From contig JBKCUA010000002.1 in NCBI GenBank assembly GCA_046318675.1, forward strand, positions 14,191 through 78,190: a stretch of DNA of 64,000 nt. Direction: 5' to 3'. Within the stretch, counting starts at the first letter, position 1; each line of letters opens with the position of its first letter. Of the stretch, positions 33,324 through 47,486 are shown piece after piece. The notes beneath the pieces were generated by a model. That model saw only the letters and a program-made list of their open reading frames with translations, made no database searches and was not told the DNA's origin. The translations under genes were made by a program, and so were the position numbers. The stretch comes from Holosporales bacterium. GTDB lineage: Bacteria > Pseudomonadota > Alphaproteobacteria > JAJTHO01.

Positions 33324-36260
33324 ATGCGCCCTTTTTTGGACTTTTGTCGTTGCATCTCTAATGCCACTATTGTTCTTTTTTTTGGATTGCTAGGTAAAAT
33401 TTTAAATGCAGCGTTAGTGGTAACGCTGGCCTGTATTTTTTTTGTTGCTGGAACTCCTTTAACGGGCACGACAGTGGATCGTTTTGTTAGTTTGGCGATG
33501 GAGTTAGTGACGGGGGAGCAAGTAAGCATACAAGATGTGCGTCTTGTTTGGGATTTGCGAGAGCAAATTATTGAAGTGCAATCGGCAAATACAGTAATAG
33601 GTACCAAAAACAATTCTGGCGGACTGTCATGGCAGTCAATGCGCGGTATTTTGCATTATGGCCTGAATCATGATCATGGTTATGAAATTACCGATTTAAC
33701 GCTGGAACAACCAATGGTGCGTGTGGTGTTGCATTCTGAGAATAAGCGGTCTTTGTGGAGTAGAACCCATCAAGTTGAGCCATTGTTTGTTTTAGATCCA
33801 AGTAGTTGGATTTCTAGTATTCTTGAAAAGTTACCCGTTCGAATGCTCGCGGTAAATAATGGTCAAGTATGGCTTTTTGATGACATGAGTCCAGTTCCGT
33901 TGGCGAGCCTTAAAGATATAACAGGGACGATTCAGGCCTCGGCGGTGGGTGTTAATGGTGCTGTTGTCGGTTCATTAAAAATTGGATTGATTACTGTACC
34001 ATTGCAAATGACATTAAGTGGTACCAATGTTGGTGGTATTTTTCCTCAGTTAATGCTGACCGTAACATCATCGGAACCGACGGCTGGTGTTGCTGCAGTT
34101 GTGGGGTCTGGCACCTTAACAATACTTATAGATTTTATAAAGCGTTCGGTACAAATTGATAATGCACAGCTTCGCCTTGCGGGTGGAACCCTGCGGGCAT
34201 CGGTGGCTGCGGTTTGGGATAGTGCCATGCACCAGGCGGCTATTACGGGTCATATTGCGCTTGATCTGCTTGATTTTGCAAGTTTACGCCAACTTTGGCC
34301 GGAGGGTCTGGCACCAAACCCTAGGGCTTGGATTTTTGCTAATCTGGATGCGGGCAATATTCGTACACTGCATCTTCAACTAGGCCTTGGTGTCCATCAA
34401 ACGGCAAACGGAATAGGACTGACCCTGCATGAGTTGAAGGGAGGGATGCGGCTTGATAATTTTATTGTCCATTACCTTGGTGATTTGCCATCGGTACAGC
34501 AAACTAGTGGCAATGCGACATTTGATGCCAATAGTTTTCATATTGTTCTAGATAGTGGTGTGTGTCAGGGAGTGCGTATTGTAGGGGGTACGGTGAGTTT
34601 TCTTGGTCTTGATGATGATGACCAAGAAGTTGTGATTGATTTGAAATTATTTGGGAGCCTTTCCGATCATCTTACTATTATTAATGCAGCCCCGCTGCAC
34701 TATGCTGATGTTTTTGGCCTCTTGCCTGGTCAAACAAGTGGAAGCAGTGAGACCCATTTTTTTGCCCGCTTTCCTCCTCTGAACGATCTCCCCGTGAGTC
34801 AGCTACATATTGATGTCAATGGGAAGTTAAAGGATGTTGGTTTTTCTGTTCCGAAAACAGCGTTGCGATTACAACAACTCAACGGCGTTCTTTTTATAAC
34901 ACCGCAAGGCGCAAAAATTAATGGTCATGGGTTACTGAATGGGATTGCCAATGATCTGCTTTGGGAACGAGATTTCACGGGAAAGGCAGCAATTACAGAG
35001 ACTGCTATTATAAATGCCACTAACGTGATGCCAGAGCAATTATTGTCCCTAGGAGTAGACCTTGGTCAACGTCTACGCGGTGTGGTGGGGGCGACCGTTA
35101 CGTGGCAGCGTAAGACTTCTGGAAAGTCATCCGTAGTATTGCGCGCGGATATGATGCGGGCGATGGTGGAGATGCCATGGATATTTTGGGATAAGCCCAT
35201 CAATGTGCCAGCCAGTCTTGAAGCAAACATCTCGATTAATGAACGGAGTACACAAATAGAATCAGTAGTGTTGGTAAGTGGTAAAGATGTGTTGCGAGGT
35301 AATGGTAAAATGCAAAATGGCAGTGTTAATTTTTTTGAGACTACAGTCTTGAAGTTGGGTGATACACACGGCAGCGTGAATTATAGCGTCTCAAAAGCAG
35401 GCGGTTATTCGATTGTTGGAAATTTTAAAAGTCTGCGATTGCGTCCGTTGGAAATACCTGATGATAAAGGGGGATCAGACAAGAAAAAGCCACCGCTTGA
35501 TATTAATATAGCCATAGATTCGCTAAAATCAAATACGGGAGCAAACGCCAAGAAAGTTACTTTGCGGTATCAACAGCGTAATGGCCAGACAATGCAGGCG
35601 AATGTGCAGGGTTTTATAATAAAAAATGACGGTGCGGTGCCATTTAGTGCCCGATTGGCAGAAAAAAAGCTCACTGTAGAAGCCAAAGACGCGGGAAGCG
35701 TTTTAGCAGCTTTTGGAATATATTCGAATATGCGTAGCGGCGATTTGACGGGCACAATTTATTTAGGTGATCCATCTGTTTATGAGTTAACAGTGAAGGA
35801 CTTTGGGTTGTGGCGTGCGCCGTTACTGGGCAAAATTCTATCGGTGGCATCAATTACAGCACCTGTTGATTTATTGATGGGCAACGGTTTGCCATTTTCC
35901 ATACTGACGGCTAAGGGACGGCTGAGTGATTCCATCTTATTTCTTGATGATATGAAAATGACGGGTTCGTCGTTGGGCATTTTGGCATCGGGGACTATTA
36001 ATCTGCACGATGAACAGTTGGATATCAAAGGGGCGGTTATGCCCGCTTACATTGTAACTCAAATTATCGGTGGAATCCCCTTGATAGGTGATTTTTTGAC
36101 GCAAAACAAACAGGAAGGTATAATTGCTGTACGCTATACAGCGGAGGGCGCATTGAACAATCCATCGATAAGGGTCAACCCGCTCACGGCTTTCACCCCG
36201 GGGGTGTTTCGAGGTGTTTTTGATTTGTTTGAGACTCCAAAAGCACGAGATATACCGTAA
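33324..36260 (+). CDS. YhdP/AsmA-like giant envelope protein (DUF3971/AsmA_2-type C-terminus)
   Basis: 978 aa, N-terminal membrane anchor, long beta-rich body, conserved C-terminal region (GIIAVRYTAEGALNNPSIRVNPLTAFTPGVFRGVFDLF). Confidence 0.5.
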   Translation: MRPFLDFCRCISNATIVLFFGLLGKILNAALVVTLACIFFVAGTPLTGTTVDRFVSLAMELVTGEQVSIQDVRLVWDLREQIIEVQSANTVIGTKNNSGGLSWQSMRGILHYGLNHDHGYEITDLTLEQPMVRVVLHSENKRSLWSRTHQVEPLFVLDPSSWISSILEKLPVRMLAVNNGQVWLFDDMSPVPLASLKDITGTIQASAVGVNGAVVGSLKIGLITVPLQMTLSGTNVGGIFPQLMLTVTSSEPTAGVAAVVGSGTLTILIDFIKRSVQIDNAQLRLAGGTLRASVAAVWDSAMHQAAITGHIALDLLDFASLRQLWPEGLAPNPRAWIFANLDAGNIRTLHLQLGLGVHQTANGIGLTLHELKGGMRLDNFIVHYLGDLPSVQQTSGNATFDANSFHIVLDSGVCQGVRIVGGTVSFLGLDDDDQEVVIDLKLFGSLSDHLTIINAAPLHYADVFGLLPGQTSGSSETHFFARFPPLNDLPVSQLHIDVNGKLKDVGFSVPKTALRLQQLNGVLFITPQGAKINGHGLLNGIANDLLWERDFTGKAAITETAIINATNVMPEQLLSLGVDLGQRLRGVVGATVTWQRKTSGKSSVVLRADMMRAMVEMPWIFWDKPINVPASLEANISINERSTQIESVVLVSGKDVLRGNGKMQNGSVNFFETTVLKLGDTHGSVNYSVSKAGGYSIVGNFKSLRLRPLEIPDDKGGSDKKKPPLDINIAIDSLKSNTGANAKKVTLRYQQRNGQTMQANVQGFIIKNDGAVPFSARLAEKKLTVEAKDAGSVLAAFGIYSNMRSGDLTGTIYLGDPSVYELTVKDFGLWRAPLLGKILSVASITAPVDLLMGNGLPFSILTAKGRLSDSILFLDDMKMTGSSLGILASGTINLHDEQLDIKGAVMPAYIVTQIIGGIPLIGDFLTQNKQEGIIAVRYTAEGALNNPSIRVNPLTAFTPGVFRGVFDLFETPKARDIP

Positions 36261-39277: not shown

Positions 39278-39330
39278 GGTGGCTCCTGCAGCATTTTTGC
39301 CGTGTGTCTTTAAAAAAGCCAGTTCCAAAT

Positions 39331-40224
39331 ATGGCCGCCCCGGTACTCAAATGGGCTGGGGGGAAACGGCAGCTGTTGCCGTTGCTGGTGCAGCGATACC
39401 CAACGGTTTTGTTGCAAGGGGAGATAGATACCTATATTGAGCCGTTTGTTGGCGGTGGAGCGGTGTTTTTTGATTTGGCGCAACGGCGGATGTTTCGCCA
39501 AGCATATCTTTTTGATGTCAATCCGGCGGTGGTGGGGGTGTACACGGCCATCAGGGATCAGGTAGAGGATGTGATTGCTTTATTAACAACCATGGGTGAG
39601 ATGTTTTTAAACTGCAATAGTCTGGACAGATCGGCGTTTTTTTACAAGATGCGGGAAACATATAATACCCAGCCCGGCGATACTCTAACCAAGGCGGCTC
39701 AAACTCTTTTTCTTAATAAAACGTGCTTTAACGGTCTGTACCGGGTGAACAGCAAAGGGCAGTTCAATGTCCCTTACGGTCGGTATAAACAGCCTGGCAT
39801 TGTTCAGCCAGAACGCCTTCGGGCAGTTTCAATGGCTCTGCAAGGTACTGTTATCCAACAAGGGGATTTTTCCCATAGTGTTGATTGTATAAAGGGAAAA
39901 ACTTTCATTTATTACGATCCGCCGTACCGCCCTTTAAACAAAACATCCTTTTTCAACCAATATGATAAAACATCTTTTGATGATAAAGAACAATCCCGCT
40001 TGGCGGCAATGTTTAAGGAACTAGACAAAAAGGGTGTTTTGCAGATGCTCAGCAACGCCGATCCCACCAATACGAGGGATGATCCGTTTTTTGATCAACT
40101 GTACGCTGGCTATTTTATTGAACGTATCACCGCCACCCGCCGGATTAATGCCGATGCTGGCAAGAGGGGCGGGCTGCGGGAGATTTTGGTGCGTAATTAC
40201 ACCAGCCCCTCCGCCACCAGATAA
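39331..40224 (+). CDS. DNA adenine (N6) methyltransferase, Dam/D12 class (alpha-type motif order)
   Basis: Dam N-terminus LKWAGGKRQLLPLL ... EPFVGGGAVFFDL (motif I/FxGxG) and C-terminal catalytic DPPY (IYYDPPYRP). No cognate restriction gene nearby. An upstream GTG at 39304 is also possible. Confidence 0.8.
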   Translation: MAAPVLKWAGGKRQLLPLLVQRYPTVLLQGEIDTYIEPFVGGGAVFFDLAQRRMFRQAYLFDVNPAVVGVYTAIRDQVEDVIALLTTMGEMFLNCNSLDRSAFFYKMRETYNTQPGDTLTKAAQTLFLNKTCFNGLYRVNSKGQFNVPYGRYKQPGIVQPERLRAVSMALQGTVIQQGDFSHSVDCIKGKTFIYYDPPYRPLNKTSFFNQYDKTSFDDKEQSRLAAMFKELDKKGVLQMLSNADPTNTRDDPFFDQLYAGYFIERITATRRINADAGKRGGLREILVRNYTSPSATR

Positions 40225-43275: not shown

Positions 43276-44166
43276 CTATTCGGTAGCACCCTCATCCCAC
43301 CCGCACAAGCCCCACGTCGCGATCATATGCGGGGGTAGGGGAGCCTGCCATTCCTGCCAAACATGGGTGATGGGGTGACGCACCTTAAGGCGCCGAGCGT
43401 GCAGGTGTAGGCGGGTGTTTTTTTCGCCCAACCCATACACGGTATCGCCCAGAATGGGCGTTTTTAAATCGGCGCAATGCACCCGTACTTGATGCGTACG
43501 GCCTTGTAGGGGGTGGAGGGTAAGCCAAGTATATTGACCATGCCTTCCTAACGTGGCGTATTGGGTGATGGCATCCTGACCAGAGGGGTCAACTTCCATA
43601 CGTTCCCCAACTTTGAGAAGGGGGGCATCCACGCTTCCCCTTGGTTTGGCGGGCTTGCCGACAACAACAGCCCAGTAGGTTTTTTCCGCGTGCCGTTCGG
43701 CAAATTGTTCCGCCAGACCAGCGGCGGCGGCGCGGCTTTTGGCTAGCACCAACACGCCGCTGGTGTCTTTATCGAGGCGGTGGGTGAGCTTAGGAGCCTC
43801 ATTGCCATATACGGCGCGCACCAAGGCATCAACGCTGTTTTTCTGGCCCGTGCCGCCCTGGGTGGCCAGACCCGCGGGCTTATTGAGCACGAGGAGTTCC
43901 TCATCCTCAGCCAGAATCAACGGCGCAAGGACGGACAAATCCAGCCGCTGCCCCGGCGTGCTCACGCTTAACGCGGCAAAAGGCGGCAGGCGTACCGTAT
44001 CCCCAGCGTTCAGGCGAAATGATCCCTCTGCTCTTTTGCCATTGACCCGCACCTGCCCCGTGCGCAGCCACTTTTGCAGCTGGGCAAAGCCAATGCCCTG
44101 GGCCTTTAGCCAGCGATCGAGACGTTGCCCAGCATCGGAATTAGAAATGGTGCGTTCAAGGGACAT
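43276..44166 (-). CDS. rluC: RluA-family 23S rRNA pseudouridine synthase (RluC/RluD-like, with S4 domain)
   Basis: N-terminal S4 RNA-binding motif (RLDRWLKAQ...GQVRVNGKRAE) and catalytic HRLDKDTSGVLVLAKS. Confidence 0.85.
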   Translation of the reverse strand: MSLERTISNSDAGQRLDRWLKAQGIGFAQLQKWLRTGQVRVNGKRAEGSFRLNAGDTVRLPPFAALSVSTPGQRLDLSVLAPLILAEDEELLVLNKPAGLATQGGTGQKNSVDALVRAVYGNEAPKLTHRLDKDTSGVLVLAKSRAAAAGLAEQFAERHAEKTYWAVVVGKPAKPRGSVDAPLLKVGERMEVDPSGQDAITQYATLGRHGQYTWLTLHPLQGRTHQVRVHCADLKTPILGDTVYGLGEKNTRLHLHARRLKVRHPITHVWQEWQAPLPPHMIATWGLCGWDEGATE

Positions 44167-44172
44167 GGGGGG

Positions 44173-45063
44173 TCATCGCTTCTGAAACGCGCTTTCCATC
44201 ACGTTCAACACTCCCAAGATAACCTCCTTCACCCGCCGTTTGACGCTGGGCAGGGGGGTGAGGGCCTTGAGGGTAGGAAGCTCCAGGCACGGCAGGTGGG
44301 CGGCCTCGGGCAGGGCTTTGACAAACTGTTGGTGCAGCCAGCTCCCCTCCGGCGGGAGGATATTCTTCGGGATAGCCAAGCGGCGCAGGATTTCATTCCA
44401 TAAATGATAGGTATATGCACCTTGACAGAGCCTATCCATTTCTTCCGTTTTATCGGGATGCAACGCCAGCAGCGGTGCCAGATAACTGACAGGATAGAAC
44501 GCTTGCGGGGGTAGGGCAACACCCTGCATATTAAGGCGGGTGAGCACCCTTGTGAGCAGGCCGGGGCCAATATACGCCCATGGGAAATCGGTGCCGCTGG
44601 TGGCGAGTTCTTCTAAAAGGGTGTGCTGAAGGCTGGCATCGGGGATATGCAGCACCCCAACGCTGATAGTCTTTTTATCCTCACGACCACACACAATATT
44701 TTTGCCGCTAGCAAGGGCAGTAAAATCCCCTGCCGGGCGCAGGCAAATGACATCGGCATCAAGCCACCAGCCTGGCTCTTTGCTGAGCAGGGTAAATCGG
44801 AATGCATCGGAAAAAGCGGTTATATTGGCTTTCATGCCGCCTTGGGTGTACTTACCCAGATCGGATCGGGGGAGAATCTCCGCCGCGTCCCGGCGCACGA
44901 CCCCCGTGGGGACTTCCAGCGGATCAAAGCACCACAGATGCACAGTAAACCCTTTTTGAACAAAGGAGGCCATGCAGGCACGCTCATAAACAGACAGAGG
45001 GCGGCCATGCCAAAAGAAGTGGGCGGTTTCAGAATTGCTCATGATAGCAGGGTATTCCCTCAA
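44173..45063 (-). CDS. GT32-like (Gly_transf_sug / capsule-synthesis type) DXD glycosyltransferase
   Basis: N-terminal HFFWHG...LSVYERACMASFVQKGFTVHLW and central AFSDAFRFTLLSKEPGWWLDADV (DxD) match the glycosyltransferase sugar-binding DXD family. Host-like GC. Sits 7 bp upstream of rluC on the same strand. Start may be Met at 45040. Confidence 0.5.
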   Translation of the reverse strand: MREYPAIMSNSETAHFFWHGRPLSVYERACMASFVQKGFTVHLWCFDPLEVPTGVVRRDAAEILPRSDLGKYTQGGMKANITAFSDAFRFTLLSKEPGWWLDADVICLRPAGDFTALASGKNIVCGREDKKTISVGVLHIPDASLQHTLLEELATSGTDFPWAYIGPGLLTRVLTRLNMQGVALPPQAFYPVSYLAPLLALHPDKTEEMDRLCQGAYTYHLWNEILRRLAIPKNILPPEGSWLHQQFVKALPEAAHLPCLELPTLKALTPLPSVKRRVKEVILGVLNVMESAFQKR

Positions 45064-45174
45064 GGATGCTTTACCCTGTTTAAGTCAGAAGGGTGATGCT
45101 GGCAATGGGTAACGGTTCAGGCTGAACAAGGTAGTCTCAATGGCTTCACCCCCCTTTTTACTGGATACCAGCCG

Positions 45175-45235
45175 TGGCGGTCTGGCTGCTGGGGCGGGAG
45201 GGGTGCTGTACCAGTTTCATCAATACCCCCATGGC
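45175..45235. repeat. 61-bp perfect direct repeat, copy A (displaced 3'-end remnant of the FTR1 permease gene)
   Basis: Identical to 46661-46721. On the minus strand it encodes AMGVLMKLVQHPSRPSSQTA followed by a diverged tail TAGIQ* and G-run. Confidence 0.9.
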
Positions 45236-45269
45236 AGCATAATATTTTGCATTAATAAAAATAAAATAC

Positions 45270-45300
45270 TTGACGAATATATATATATATTAATCTAATA
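45270..45300 (+). promoter_or_regulatory. candidate sigma70-type promoter with a (TA)7 tract in the spacer
   Basis: TTGACG (45270-45275), (AT)7 at 45277-45290, then -10-like TAATCT/CTAATAAT about 70-85 bp upstream of the 421-aa ORF. Confidence 0.4.
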
Positions 45301-45368
45301 ATGGCGGTGGCTTGGACACGGATAATAATCGGCCTTGAACCACCTAACCACTGGCAACGAAGGTAACC

Positions 45369-46634
45369 ATGATAGGAGTAGGTATGACGGAAGAGATGCA
45401 GGTAACAGCAGCAGATAGGGCGCGGGCTAGTCAAGTACTGGCAGCATATGAAGCCTTCAAAAAACAGAAAGACGATTTGCCGGGACTTCTAGTAGATCGT
45501 ATAGAGCGGTGGGCTAAAAAAGTTGAAGGTGTTCTTGAAAGTGAAGGTGTTCTTGAAAAAAATGTGCACCCACAGCAGGTTAAAACGCTCGCCGCATTAC
45601 AAGAGGAAATTGTAGAAATAAATCTAGCAATGCAAGAAGGATGGCCTGACTTCAAAGGGTATGTAGGCTGTTCTTTATCAGCGAACGAAGGCAAAGAAGT
45701 TAAGAGTTTGTTCGAGATCGTAATGAATGGTGAAGCATTACCTGATAACCTCTTATTTAAGAGTATTGAAAAGGTTTTGGGTGCTGAACTTTTGGAAAAA
45801 CTAAATAAGTGCCAAAATGCAGATGATAAAGATAAAGCTTTGGATATTGTTATTTCTACACGTGTAAGGAAAGATTCTAAGAATATCCACCAGAATATCG
45901 ACCCAAGCAGCGATAGTCGTAAATACATAGATTATGTCACTCTTAGCCAAGCGTACGAAAAGGGAATAGAGGAAGTTTTGGAAAATCGCAGGCTTGTTAA
46001 AAATTTTTTCGAGGCTGGTGGTAGTGTCGATGCCGAACTTGTAAAACAGCTCAATACAACTATTATGCAACACAAATTGCGGGATATTTTTAACAAAGAC
46101 CCCCTTGTTCTTGATGAACAATCTTTCATAAGAGCGATTTTGCAGGAAAATCCTCAAGATTTCAAAGAACCGACAACCCAAGTATTCGATGGAATTGTTC
46201 GTGCTATCTGCAAGGCTAATGAGGCGGCGGTGCATGAATTGCGATGGCAATCTGAAGATAGAGCACGCTTTCCCGACCTATATCTGCCGCCGTACCCTAT
46301 CAAGATTGCAAGTATATTACGTGAGACGGATAAGGTCAAACAATGGGTAGACACTGGAGAGTTGATGCAGGAGCTTGGAACAAAACGTCGAATGATAGAT
46401 TTGCAAGCGGGTACCGTGAAGAGCTTTTCCGACCTATCGGATGTGCTTCAGGATGAAATCAACAGGATTATTGCACTCGACGATCCAGACTCGCGTGGGG
46501 CACAATCGTGTTATTTTCTACACCGGCTAACTTCTGGATATAGCAATGAATACGCAAAAGAGTTAGCGTCAAAGCGGCAACAATCCGCAACCTTAGCCGT
46601 ACAGGTCACCCAGCAACTTGGGAGAGAACGCTAA
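45369..46634 (+). CDS. hypothetical protein, low-GC orphan (no recognisable domain), cargo of the repeat-flanked insertion
   Basis: 421-aa ORF. The probable real start is ATG 45384, preceded by GGAG. AT-rich codon usage contrasts with neighbours. No signal peptide or TM segment. Acidic/helical composition. Confidence 0.55.
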   Translation: MIGVGMTEEMQVTAADRARASQVLAAYEAFKKQKDDLPGLLVDRIERWAKKVEGVLESEGVLEKNVHPQQVKTLAALQEEIVEINLAMQEGWPDFKGYVGCSLSANEGKEVKSLFEIVMNGEALPDNLLFKSIEKVLGAELLEKLNKCQNADDKDKALDIVISTRVRKDSKNIHQNIDPSSDSRKYIDYVTLSQAYEKGIEEVLENRRLVKNFFEAGGSVDAELVKQLNTTIMQHKLRDIFNKDPLVLDEQSFIRAILQENPQDFKEPTTQVFDGIVRAICKANEAAVHELRWQSEDRARFPDLYLPPYPIKIASILRETDKVKQWVDTGELMQELGTKRRMIDLQAGTVKSFSDLSDVLQDEINRIIALDDPDSRGAQSCYFLHRLTSGYSNEYAKELASKRQQSATLAVQVTQQLGRER

Positions 46635-46643
46635 TACCCCCCC

Positions 46644-47486
46644 TCACGAAACCCCCGCCTTGGCGGTCTGGCTGCTGGGGCGGGAGGGGTGCTGTACCAG
46701 TTTCATCAATACCCCCATGGCGATCAGGGTTGCGGCATAGACGGCGACCTGCATTCCCGTGGGCTGATCGGTATAGCCCATGAGGGCGTGCAGGGCTTTG
46801 CCGCCGTAGCTATCCTGCGCCACAATGCCGGAGCTGTCCCAAAGAATATCCGCCCATAATTCAATAACCCCTGCTTGGTGCAGGTACGCTACCGCCTGTC
46901 CGGCCATGCCGGCAGCCAACAGGGCGATAAGGACGCTGGTCACGGCAAACATCTGGCGGGTGGGAATGCGAATCAGGCCAAAGTACATGGTTGCGCTGAT
47001 AACAACCCCGCCCAGCAGGCCAATGCCCCCACCTAGCAGCATGGAAGCTATAGTATTGCCGCCCGATACCGCAATCCCGTATAAAAAGAGCACAATTTCG
47101 GAGCCTTCCCGCAACACCGCTACTGCCACCACAATCGCCAGTGCCGCCAAGGAGCGTCGCCCGTGGGCGACAGCCTCTCCCAGCACCCGCAGCTGTTGCG
47201 CCATATGCCGACCATGCTTGGCCATCCAGACATTATGCCACGTCAGCATCAGCACGGCGAGGATCAGAACACTGGCGTTGAACACTTCCTGTCCCACCCC
47301 GGCCATCAGGCCAGCCAGAGAGCTGGCAAACATCGCTACTACGCAGGCACCGGCAACACCGCCCGCAATCCCGTAACTGACCCAATGCCCTCGGTAAGGA
47401 ACACCGCGGGTGGCGGCCAGCACAATGCCAACAATGAGGCCGGCTTCGATGACTTCACGAAAAACAATGATGAGGGTGGCGAGCAT
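46644..47486 (-). CDS. high-affinity Fe2+ permease, FTR1 family (FtrC/EfeU-like)
   Basis: 7-TM profile with two RExxE iron-binding motifs (REVIEAG in TM1 and REGSEIV in TM4). Confidence 0.8.
   Translation of the reverse strand: MLATLIIVFREVIEAGLIVGIVLAATRGVPYRGHWVSYGIAGGVAGACVVAMFASSLAGLMAGVGQEVFNASVLILAVLMLTWHNVWMAKHGRHMAQQLRVLGEAVAHGRRSLAALAIVVAVAVLREGSEIVLFLYGIAVSGGNTIASMLLGGGIGLLGGVVISATMYFGLIRIPTRQMFAVTSVLIALLAAGMAGQAVAYLHQAGVIELWADILWDSSGIVAQDSYGGKALHALMGYTDQPTGMQVAVYAATLIAMGVLMKLVQHPSRPSSQTAKAGVS
46661..46721. repeat. 61-bp perfect direct repeat, copy B (functional 3' end of the FTR1 gene)
   Basis: Identical to 45175-45235. Encodes the last residues ...AMGVLMKLVQHPSRPSSQTA KAGVS* of the permease. 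Confidence 0.9.

Follow-up and report, generated by a model that had tools for sequence, protein, structure and literature searches.

Does a seven-unit AT dinucleotide repeat in front of a gene without relatives act as a promoter switch, or is it a passive feature of the AT-rich DNA in which that gene arrived? The question is raised by a locus in a 64-kb stretch of DNA (positions 1-64000, hereafter the window) from an uncultured Holosporales strain, in which the repeat follows a -35-like hexamer upstream of an ORFan. The initial annotation, made from this DNA alone, had proposed stochastic ON/OFF expression of an acquired orphan gene through slippage in the promoter spacer. Around the promoter candidate, the sequence reads directly as ...AAATAC TTGACG A ATATATATATATAT TAATCTAATAATGGCGG..., with a single A (45276) between TTGACG and the repeat, and the two features concerned are:

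45277..45290, no strand: the (AT)7 dinucleotide tract, read directly, with the equivalent notation A(TA)6T
45236..45302, no strand: an AT-rich block of 67 nt with 13% GC, which forms the left end of the inserted element and holds both the tract and the promoter candidates

Re-reading of the sequence bore out the earlier coordinates and unit count (TTGACG at 45270-45275, (AT)7 at 45277-45290), while the earlier rendering AAT(AT)7 had slightly garbled the letters, which are an A and then (AT)7. A 12-nt alternating AT pattern is found at one site in the 64-kb window and at none in 100 dinucleotide-preserving shuffles, and a 14-nt alternating run arose in just 91 of 200,000 mononucleotide shuffles of the 67-nt block (45236-45302). 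At seven units the tract is also the longest dinucleotide run in the 64 kb, all others, among them those at 34558, 44688 and 62730, having at most 4 units; from the shuffle tests and the lack of any other run above 4 units it follows that it is real and non-random. It further exceeds the cut-off for dinucleotide instability in a study that takes repeats of at least 5 units as candidates and finds 5-unit tracts to be mostly invariant in length (PMC2651432).

This excess over what composition predicts, together with the position above the 5-unit threshold, speaks against a purely static tract and for a contingency locus. Here, slipped-strand mispairing would shift the -35/-10 spacing by 2 bp, such that the level of the ORFan product differs between subpopulations, either as ON/OFF expression or as a multi-state 'volume control' of the kind seen at hifA/hifB of Haemophilus influenzae. 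Weighing all that follows, we consider such a locus rather unlikely. A first point against it is that it would stand alone: the 64-kb window holds no tetranucleotide run of more than 3 units and no homopolymer of more than 9 nt, leaving (AT)7 as the lone candidate contingency repeat rather than a member of a repertoire.

The gene in question and the element that brought it are delimited by the following features:

45384..46634, plus strand: the ORFan, 416 aa according to the ORF list; a start at 45369 gives the 421 aa of NCBI MFN7901272.1
46644..47486, minus strand: an FTR1-family iron permease gene, the insertion target (Pfam PF03239, E = 6e-34)
44173..45042, minus strand: a glycosyltransferase gene, which lies 116 nt after FTR1 in empty-site strains and 18 nt after it in the sister species
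45158..45235, minus strand: the displaced native FTR1 3' end, comprising the last 25 codons (...QTATAGIQ) and the stop
45168-45235, minus strand: the left copy of a direct repeat, inside the displaced native FTR1 3' end
46654..46721, minus strand: the right copy of that repeat, located in the FTR1 3' end that is now functional
45236..46660, no strand: element-specific DNA, made up of the AT-rich promoter block, the ORFan, a 9-nt spacer and a surrogate FTR1 tail
46644-46660: the surrogate FTR1 tail (...KAGVS and stop)

The ORFan is preceded by an AGGAG Shine-Dalgarno sequence (45374-45378), 5 nt before the ATG at 45384. Profile searches against Pfam, PHROGs, NCBIfam and PADLOC gave no match, and neither did searches of viral contigs, plasmids and phages; protein searches among 5.8e9 clusters and 1.84e9 representative proteins returned only the ORFan itself. 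The label 'orphan' that the gene had first been given is thus apt, with no homologue among 1.84 billion representative proteins. An AlphaFold2 single-sequence model is all-helical and, with a pLDDT of 44, unreliable, for which reason a fold search was not justified. The coding sequence contains an 18-bp in-frame tandem duplication (45524-45558, EGVLES/EGVLEK) with identical 17-nt repeat cores, a further indication that the element has recently undergone slippage or duplication. Base composition is a poor guide to the gene's origin: its GC3 of 0.38 falls inside the range of the other genes of the window, and we set low GC aside as an unreliable proof of foreign descent. The composition of the window is itself very uneven (36-66% GC per kb; gene GC3 0.31-0.75) and hence low GC alone is no mark of foreign DNA in this genome.

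The comparison of occupied and empty sites is far more informative. Empty-site contigs were drawn from the 90%-identity cluster members of FTR1, which include two other FTR1 variants. One of these (P0004, in contigs L055 and L056) is the FTR1 protein of the window except for its ...TAGIQ end, that is, the FTR1 body joined to the tail of the left repeat copy, and the displaced FTR1 3' end of the window is identical to the FTR1 3' end of these two contigs. The other (P0005) occurs in contigs L050-L054 and in a 224-kb contig. In all contigs with either variant the glycosyltransferase gene follows FTR1 after 116 nt with no ORFan between them. Thus, seven conspecific contigs (L050-L056), with flanks 97.4-99.8% identical to the window, lack the insert, and their alignment to the window breaks exactly at the repeat. 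A sister species (L057), whose FTR1 protein is 80% identical, also lacks it, its gene string running CysG, cupredoxin, FTR1, glycosyltransferase and RluA with a gap of 18 nt between FTR1 and glycosyltransferase. Scans of GTDB genomes and JGI metagenomes with FTR1 retrieved only relatives of at most 63% identity and no synteny, and the 289-aa glycosyltransferase has no exact sequence match on record. The insert is identical in the three other contigs that carry it (L001-L003, described below) and absent from L050-L057. Given these empty sites, the ancestral state was empty; the left tail is native and the right tail arrived with the insert. By this comparison of contigs the ORFan is a recent, strain-specific and integrase-less acquisition, with which the repeat tract came. 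That the gene had been called 'acquired' is accordingly well founded, the insert being missing from all seven conspecific contigs and from the sister species.

Relative to the empty site the insert measures 1,486 bp, and it consists of 148 nt 5' of the ORFan, the ORFan itself and 9 nt between the stops of the ORFan and FTR1. The direct repeat that bounds it is 68 nt long and 97% identical between its copies, 61 nt of it forming a perfect core (45175-45235 = 46661-46721), and the copies lie at a spacing of 1,486 nt. Past the 61-nt identity the two copies diverge, yet each continues via a short homologous tail to a stop codon in frame (left ...QTATAGIQ, right ...QTAKAGVS), which a G-run follows. 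The repeats therefore flank the insert, duplicate the 3' end of the target and supply it with an in-frame stop on both sides, as attL and attR sites do. Judging from the perfect core, the surrogate 3' end and the abrupt loss of homology at 45235/45236, this is the attL/attR architecture of an integrative element. Besides site-specific integration, a small circle that recombined with the gene by Campbell-type homologous recombination across the 61 nt would leave an identical product. The sole ORF of the element matches no integrase, transposase or other family, and the element is thus non-autonomous at best. Searches of viral contigs, plasmids, phages and protein databases revealed no copies of it elsewhere, the attL junction has no match in viral contigs, and a donor FTR1 allele ending in KAGVS is absent among the best 120 homologues.

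Several other explanations of this structure were tried and rejected. An integron cassette or transposon is excluded, as the repeat is the target's own 3' end with a surrogate tail and there are no terminal inverted repeats; a target-site duplication would be far shorter than the 61-68 nt of this repeat; and against an assembly artefact, a JGI contig (L001) independently spans both junctions with 100% identity. The Rfam and tRNA scans of the window found nothing, which indicates that the insertion target is not an RNA gene. On the right side, the ORFan and FTR1 are convergent (46632-46646), with their stop codons 9 nt apart and a C7 run between them. A scan of 44900-46900 predicted no intrinsic terminator, so that transcripts of the ORFan would continue into the FTR1-cupredoxin genes in antisense orientation. 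On the left side, the insert splits FTR1 from the glycosyltransferase gene, probably its former co-transcription partner.

The proximity of the tract to the left junction suggests another role for it. The (AT)7 starts 41 nt inside the junction and occupies the positions 41-55 nt from the core/arm boundary at 45235/45236, such that the AT-rich block could be an attachment-site arm, flexible or unwindable DNA beside the 61-nt core that is used by a recombinase or architectural protein supplied in trans, or else the unwinding element of a former small replicon. The att-like repeats and the surrogate 3' end fit this proposal, as does the absence of a recombinase gene, which leaves the element dependent on sites in cis, and the nature of TA steps, which bend and melt more readily than any other dinucleotide step. 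Around the tract there are neither arm-type nor inverted repeats apart from the trivial TA palindrome, no recombinase was detected and no related element was found for comparison. Moreover, the ORFan would still need a promoter, for which the tract region is the lone good candidate. We accordingly regard an attachment arm as improbable, and return to the tract as a promoter spacer.

The neighboring genes (AsmA, RluA, glycosyltransferase, FTR1, cupredoxin and CysG) all lie on the minus strand; hence, the plus-strand ORFan needs its own promoter, within about 45064-45383. The candidate hexamers, with spacers given for n AT units, are:

45270..45275, plus strand: the -35-like hexamer TTGACG, a 5/6 match to TTGACA (CTTGAC at 45269-45274)
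45291..45296, plus strand: the -10 candidate TAATCT, with A2 and T6 present; spacer 15 nt at n=7 and 17 nt at n=8
45294..45299, plus strand: the -10 candidate TCTAAT, a 5/6 match with C at position 2; spacer 18 nt at n=7
45298..45303, plus strand: the -10 candidate AATAAT; spacer 22 nt at n=7 and 17 nt at n=5

A simple weight-matrix scan for sigma-70 promoters, run over both strands of 45000-45420, gave 9.2 for TTGACG-18-TCTAAT and 8.3 for TTGACG-15-TAATCT, all others scoring at most 6.8; scores of at least 9 occur at 108 of 127,920 positions of the window. A stricter sigma-70 scan, which demands a 16-18 nt spacer and both A2 and T6, called no promoter at the tract with n=7: TAATCT was rejected for its 15-nt spacer and TCTAAT for lacking A at position 2. 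Indeed, at n=7 no -10 hexamer with A2 and T6 lies at 16-18 nt, a geometry reached only at n=5 or n=8. Since the 148 nt that the element has 5' of the ORFan also offer no good -35-like hexamer other than TTGACG, we infer that a promoter based on it is the best upstream candidate, a reasonable if not a clean one. The initial annotation was therefore right that the tract follows TTGACG and that -10-like hexamers come after it, and it implied a firmer -10 assignment than these bear out, with TAATCT 15 nt away, TCTAAT devoid of A2 and AATAAT 22 nt away. As seen from a contingency locus, the location of the tract exactly between the -35 and -10 candidates is favorable, and the blank result of the stricter scan at n=7 would fit an OFF or low state. 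A divergent glycosyltransferase promoter, by analogy with hifA/hifB, was also sought and rejected, no minus-strand candidate near the tract scoring above 6.0. The presumed 5' UTR of the ORFan folds no better than shuffles (z = +1.2), which argues against a riboswitch or attenuator in it.

We then come to what a change in unit number would do. The promoter region was rebuilt in silico with n = 3-12 units and scored in a heuristic position-weight simulation, with the following modelled best scores:

n=4: 9.7
n=5: 12.2, from TTGACG-17-AATAAT
n=6: 9.7
n=7: 9.2
n=8: 10.8, from TTGACG-17-TAATCT
n=9: 8.3
n=10-11: 13.4, with TATATT supplied by the tract itself
n=12: 7.2

The modelled score thus ranges over 7.2-13.4 across n = 4-12, and on this model the geometry would allow promoter strength to depend on repeat number. 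The n=7 allele lies one slip short of the canonical spacing (n=8, TTGACG-17-TAATCT), a geometry to be expected of a switch one slip away from ON, and which to this extent speaks against a static tract. That modelled promoter quality rises and falls as units are added, as the scores above show, likewise favors a contingency locus. However, the overlapping -10-like hexamers would buffer a clean ON/OFF response: because such hexamers are present in several registers for nearly every n, the predicted output is graded rather than ON/OFF.

The initial annotation had called for a comparison of repeat number among isolates. This gave no sign of variation: n=7 is found in all four assemblies that carry the element, namely the window, the JGI metagenome contig L001 and two Logan contigs (L002 from SRR31514794 and L003 from SRR31514666), all being consensus sequences and possibly one clone. 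These represent at least three samples, and minority length variants could escape such consensus sequences. As the four are 100% identical over 1.5-5.6 kb and may be a single clone, they are weak evidence for the stability of the tract. Both Logan contigs reach from repeat boundary to repeat boundary (45206-46690) with no break at the tract, and such unbroken contigs speak weakly against a large population of mixed lengths. Both observations count against a contingency locus, as do the shortness of the tract next to proven TA switches (7 versus 9-11 units) and our literature search, which found no description of phase variation in Holosporales. Stochastic ON/OFF switching by slippage, as first proposed, thus gains no support from the data at hand, which are mildly negative and short of a refutation. 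In its favor, stochastic expression of an accessory protein is conceivable in an intracellular symbiont such as the Holosporales host.

The low GC of the block evokes one more function, namely that the tract is a nucleation site for a xenogeneic silencer of the MucR- or H-NS-like type, which would repress the acquired AT-rich gene. For alphaproteobacterial MucR, the preferred sites are AT-rich and contain T-A steps, whereas A-tracts are avoided (PMC5881533), and the tract is such a site, being AT-rich (13% GC over the block), with six or seven consecutive T-A steps and no A-tracts. MucR is also known to silence acquired AT-rich genes (PMC9410896). Against this, a review reports MucR and the other known silencers to be absent from Holosporales with genomes of AT >70% (PMC7710501); this absence may not apply here since the present genome has about 49% GC. 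The perfect periodicity of the run would also be left unexplained, and overall we see little probability in a silencer site, less than in any other reading of the tract considered here.

We hence favor, with moderate confidence, the reading in which (AT)7 is a mostly static AT-rich spacer of an element-borne promoter. A 1.49-kb single-gene, integrase-less element has recently entered the FTR1 gene of one uncultured Holosporales strain at its 3' end, with (AT)7 as part of the 13%-GC left end of the element. Under this reading, the tract would fill most of the spacer between the near-consensus TTGACG and the overlapping -10-like hexamers, which together with it would constitute the ORFan promoter carried by the element. 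The tract would act mainly as a static, easily melted spacer. While the tract, the insertion, the empty sites and the constant length among the assemblies are observed, we infer both this role and the promoter assignment. The tract itself would most likely be a slippage by-product of very AT-rich foreign DNA, which appears to have settled at seven units among the bacteria sampled, rather than a contingency switch that evolved for ON/OFF control.

The wider locus offers some observations of its own. A 328-aa NAD-dependent epimerase gene lies between the glycosyltransferase and RluA genes in L050 (4212-5198) and in the 224-kb JGI/NCBI contig, and it is missing from the window (44166-44173), from L053 and from the sister species L057; some 1 kb away from the insertion, there is thus a second place at which strains differ. 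On the far side, a large ORF (49174-52662) encodes 1,162 aa at 40% GC and a GC3 of 0.31, without a match in Pfam. None of the conspecific contigs is homologous at the DNA level beyond 49161, and the relatives encode proteins of 1,272-1,273 aa there, whereby this looks like a hypervariable large ORFan beside CysG. A gene for a D12-class (Dam-like) N6-adenine DNA methyltransferase (39304-40224; Pfam E = 1e-54) is situated 5 kb upstream.

A bolder synthesis would see in the element a mobile, integrase-less 1.49-kb cassette, in which the ORFan and its promoter are combined with 88 nt that mimic the FTR1 3' end, and which passes between strains of an obligate protist endosymbiont and carries a TA-repeat promoter rheostat. 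We deem this quite improbable. Were it true, an acquired and possibly host-directed protein would be made in only part of the population, and Holosporales would gain their first described SSR contingency locus. More generally, if the tract does vary, contingency switching by simple-sequence repeats would reach into an uncultured lineage whose members live as symbionts inside protists, and a switch on a freshly acquired gene would show how new DNA is 'test-driven' in a subpopulation. On present evidence, the tract is low-complexity sequence such as is ordinary in AT-rich foreign DNA, and a candidate of a known kind. The firmer and more noteworthy result is the cleanly bounded insertion of a single ORFan, for which both the before and after states are at hand: it is a dated, bounded example of the entry of an ORFan gene into a symbiont genome.

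Finally, three known systems help place the locus. The overlapping promoters of hifA/hifB in H. influenzae contain a (TA)9-11 tract (van Ham et al. 1993, summarised in PMC2651432), and the present seven units fall between the 5-unit cut-off and the 9-11 units of that tract. As at hifA/hifB, a TA tract lies between the -35 and -10 elements, a one-unit slip would change the spacer by 2 bp, and the gene concerned is accessory and strain-variable. In contrast to the overlapping divergent promoters with 9-11 units that serve a fimbrial product, the locus described here has 7 units, a single gene, an ORFan product and a promoter that is a candidate only, with no length polymorphism among the four assemblies. 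The hosts differ as well, this being an alphaproteobacterial protist symbiont, in whose order the literature search found no phase variation.

Members of the Holosporales are intracellular symbionts of protists. Spacer switches based on homopolymers operate at porA and opc of Neisseria meningitidis and at the fim genes of Bordetella, where 1-bp slips in poly-G or poly-C produce graded, multi-level expression in hosts with dozens of such loci. The model predicts a similarly graded output for the present promoter, whereas the window holds one candidate as opposed to the dozens of loci per organism of those hosts. For the insertion as a whole, the relevant comparison is with the CIMEs, integrase-less islets flanked by att sites that were described beside ICESt1/ICESt3 of Streptococcus thermophilus. 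The insert differs from these in its size of only 1.49 kb and its content of one ORFan, as well as in that no cognate integrative element or integrase was found for it. In common with the CIMEs, its direct repeats duplicate the 3' end of the target, a surrogate 3' end borne by the element keeps the target intact, no recombination genes lie inside, and conspecifics retain the empty site. By this analogy, an integrase-less, cis-mobilizable islet would be the closest known analogue of the architecture in which the ORFan and its AT tract reached the FTR1 gene.
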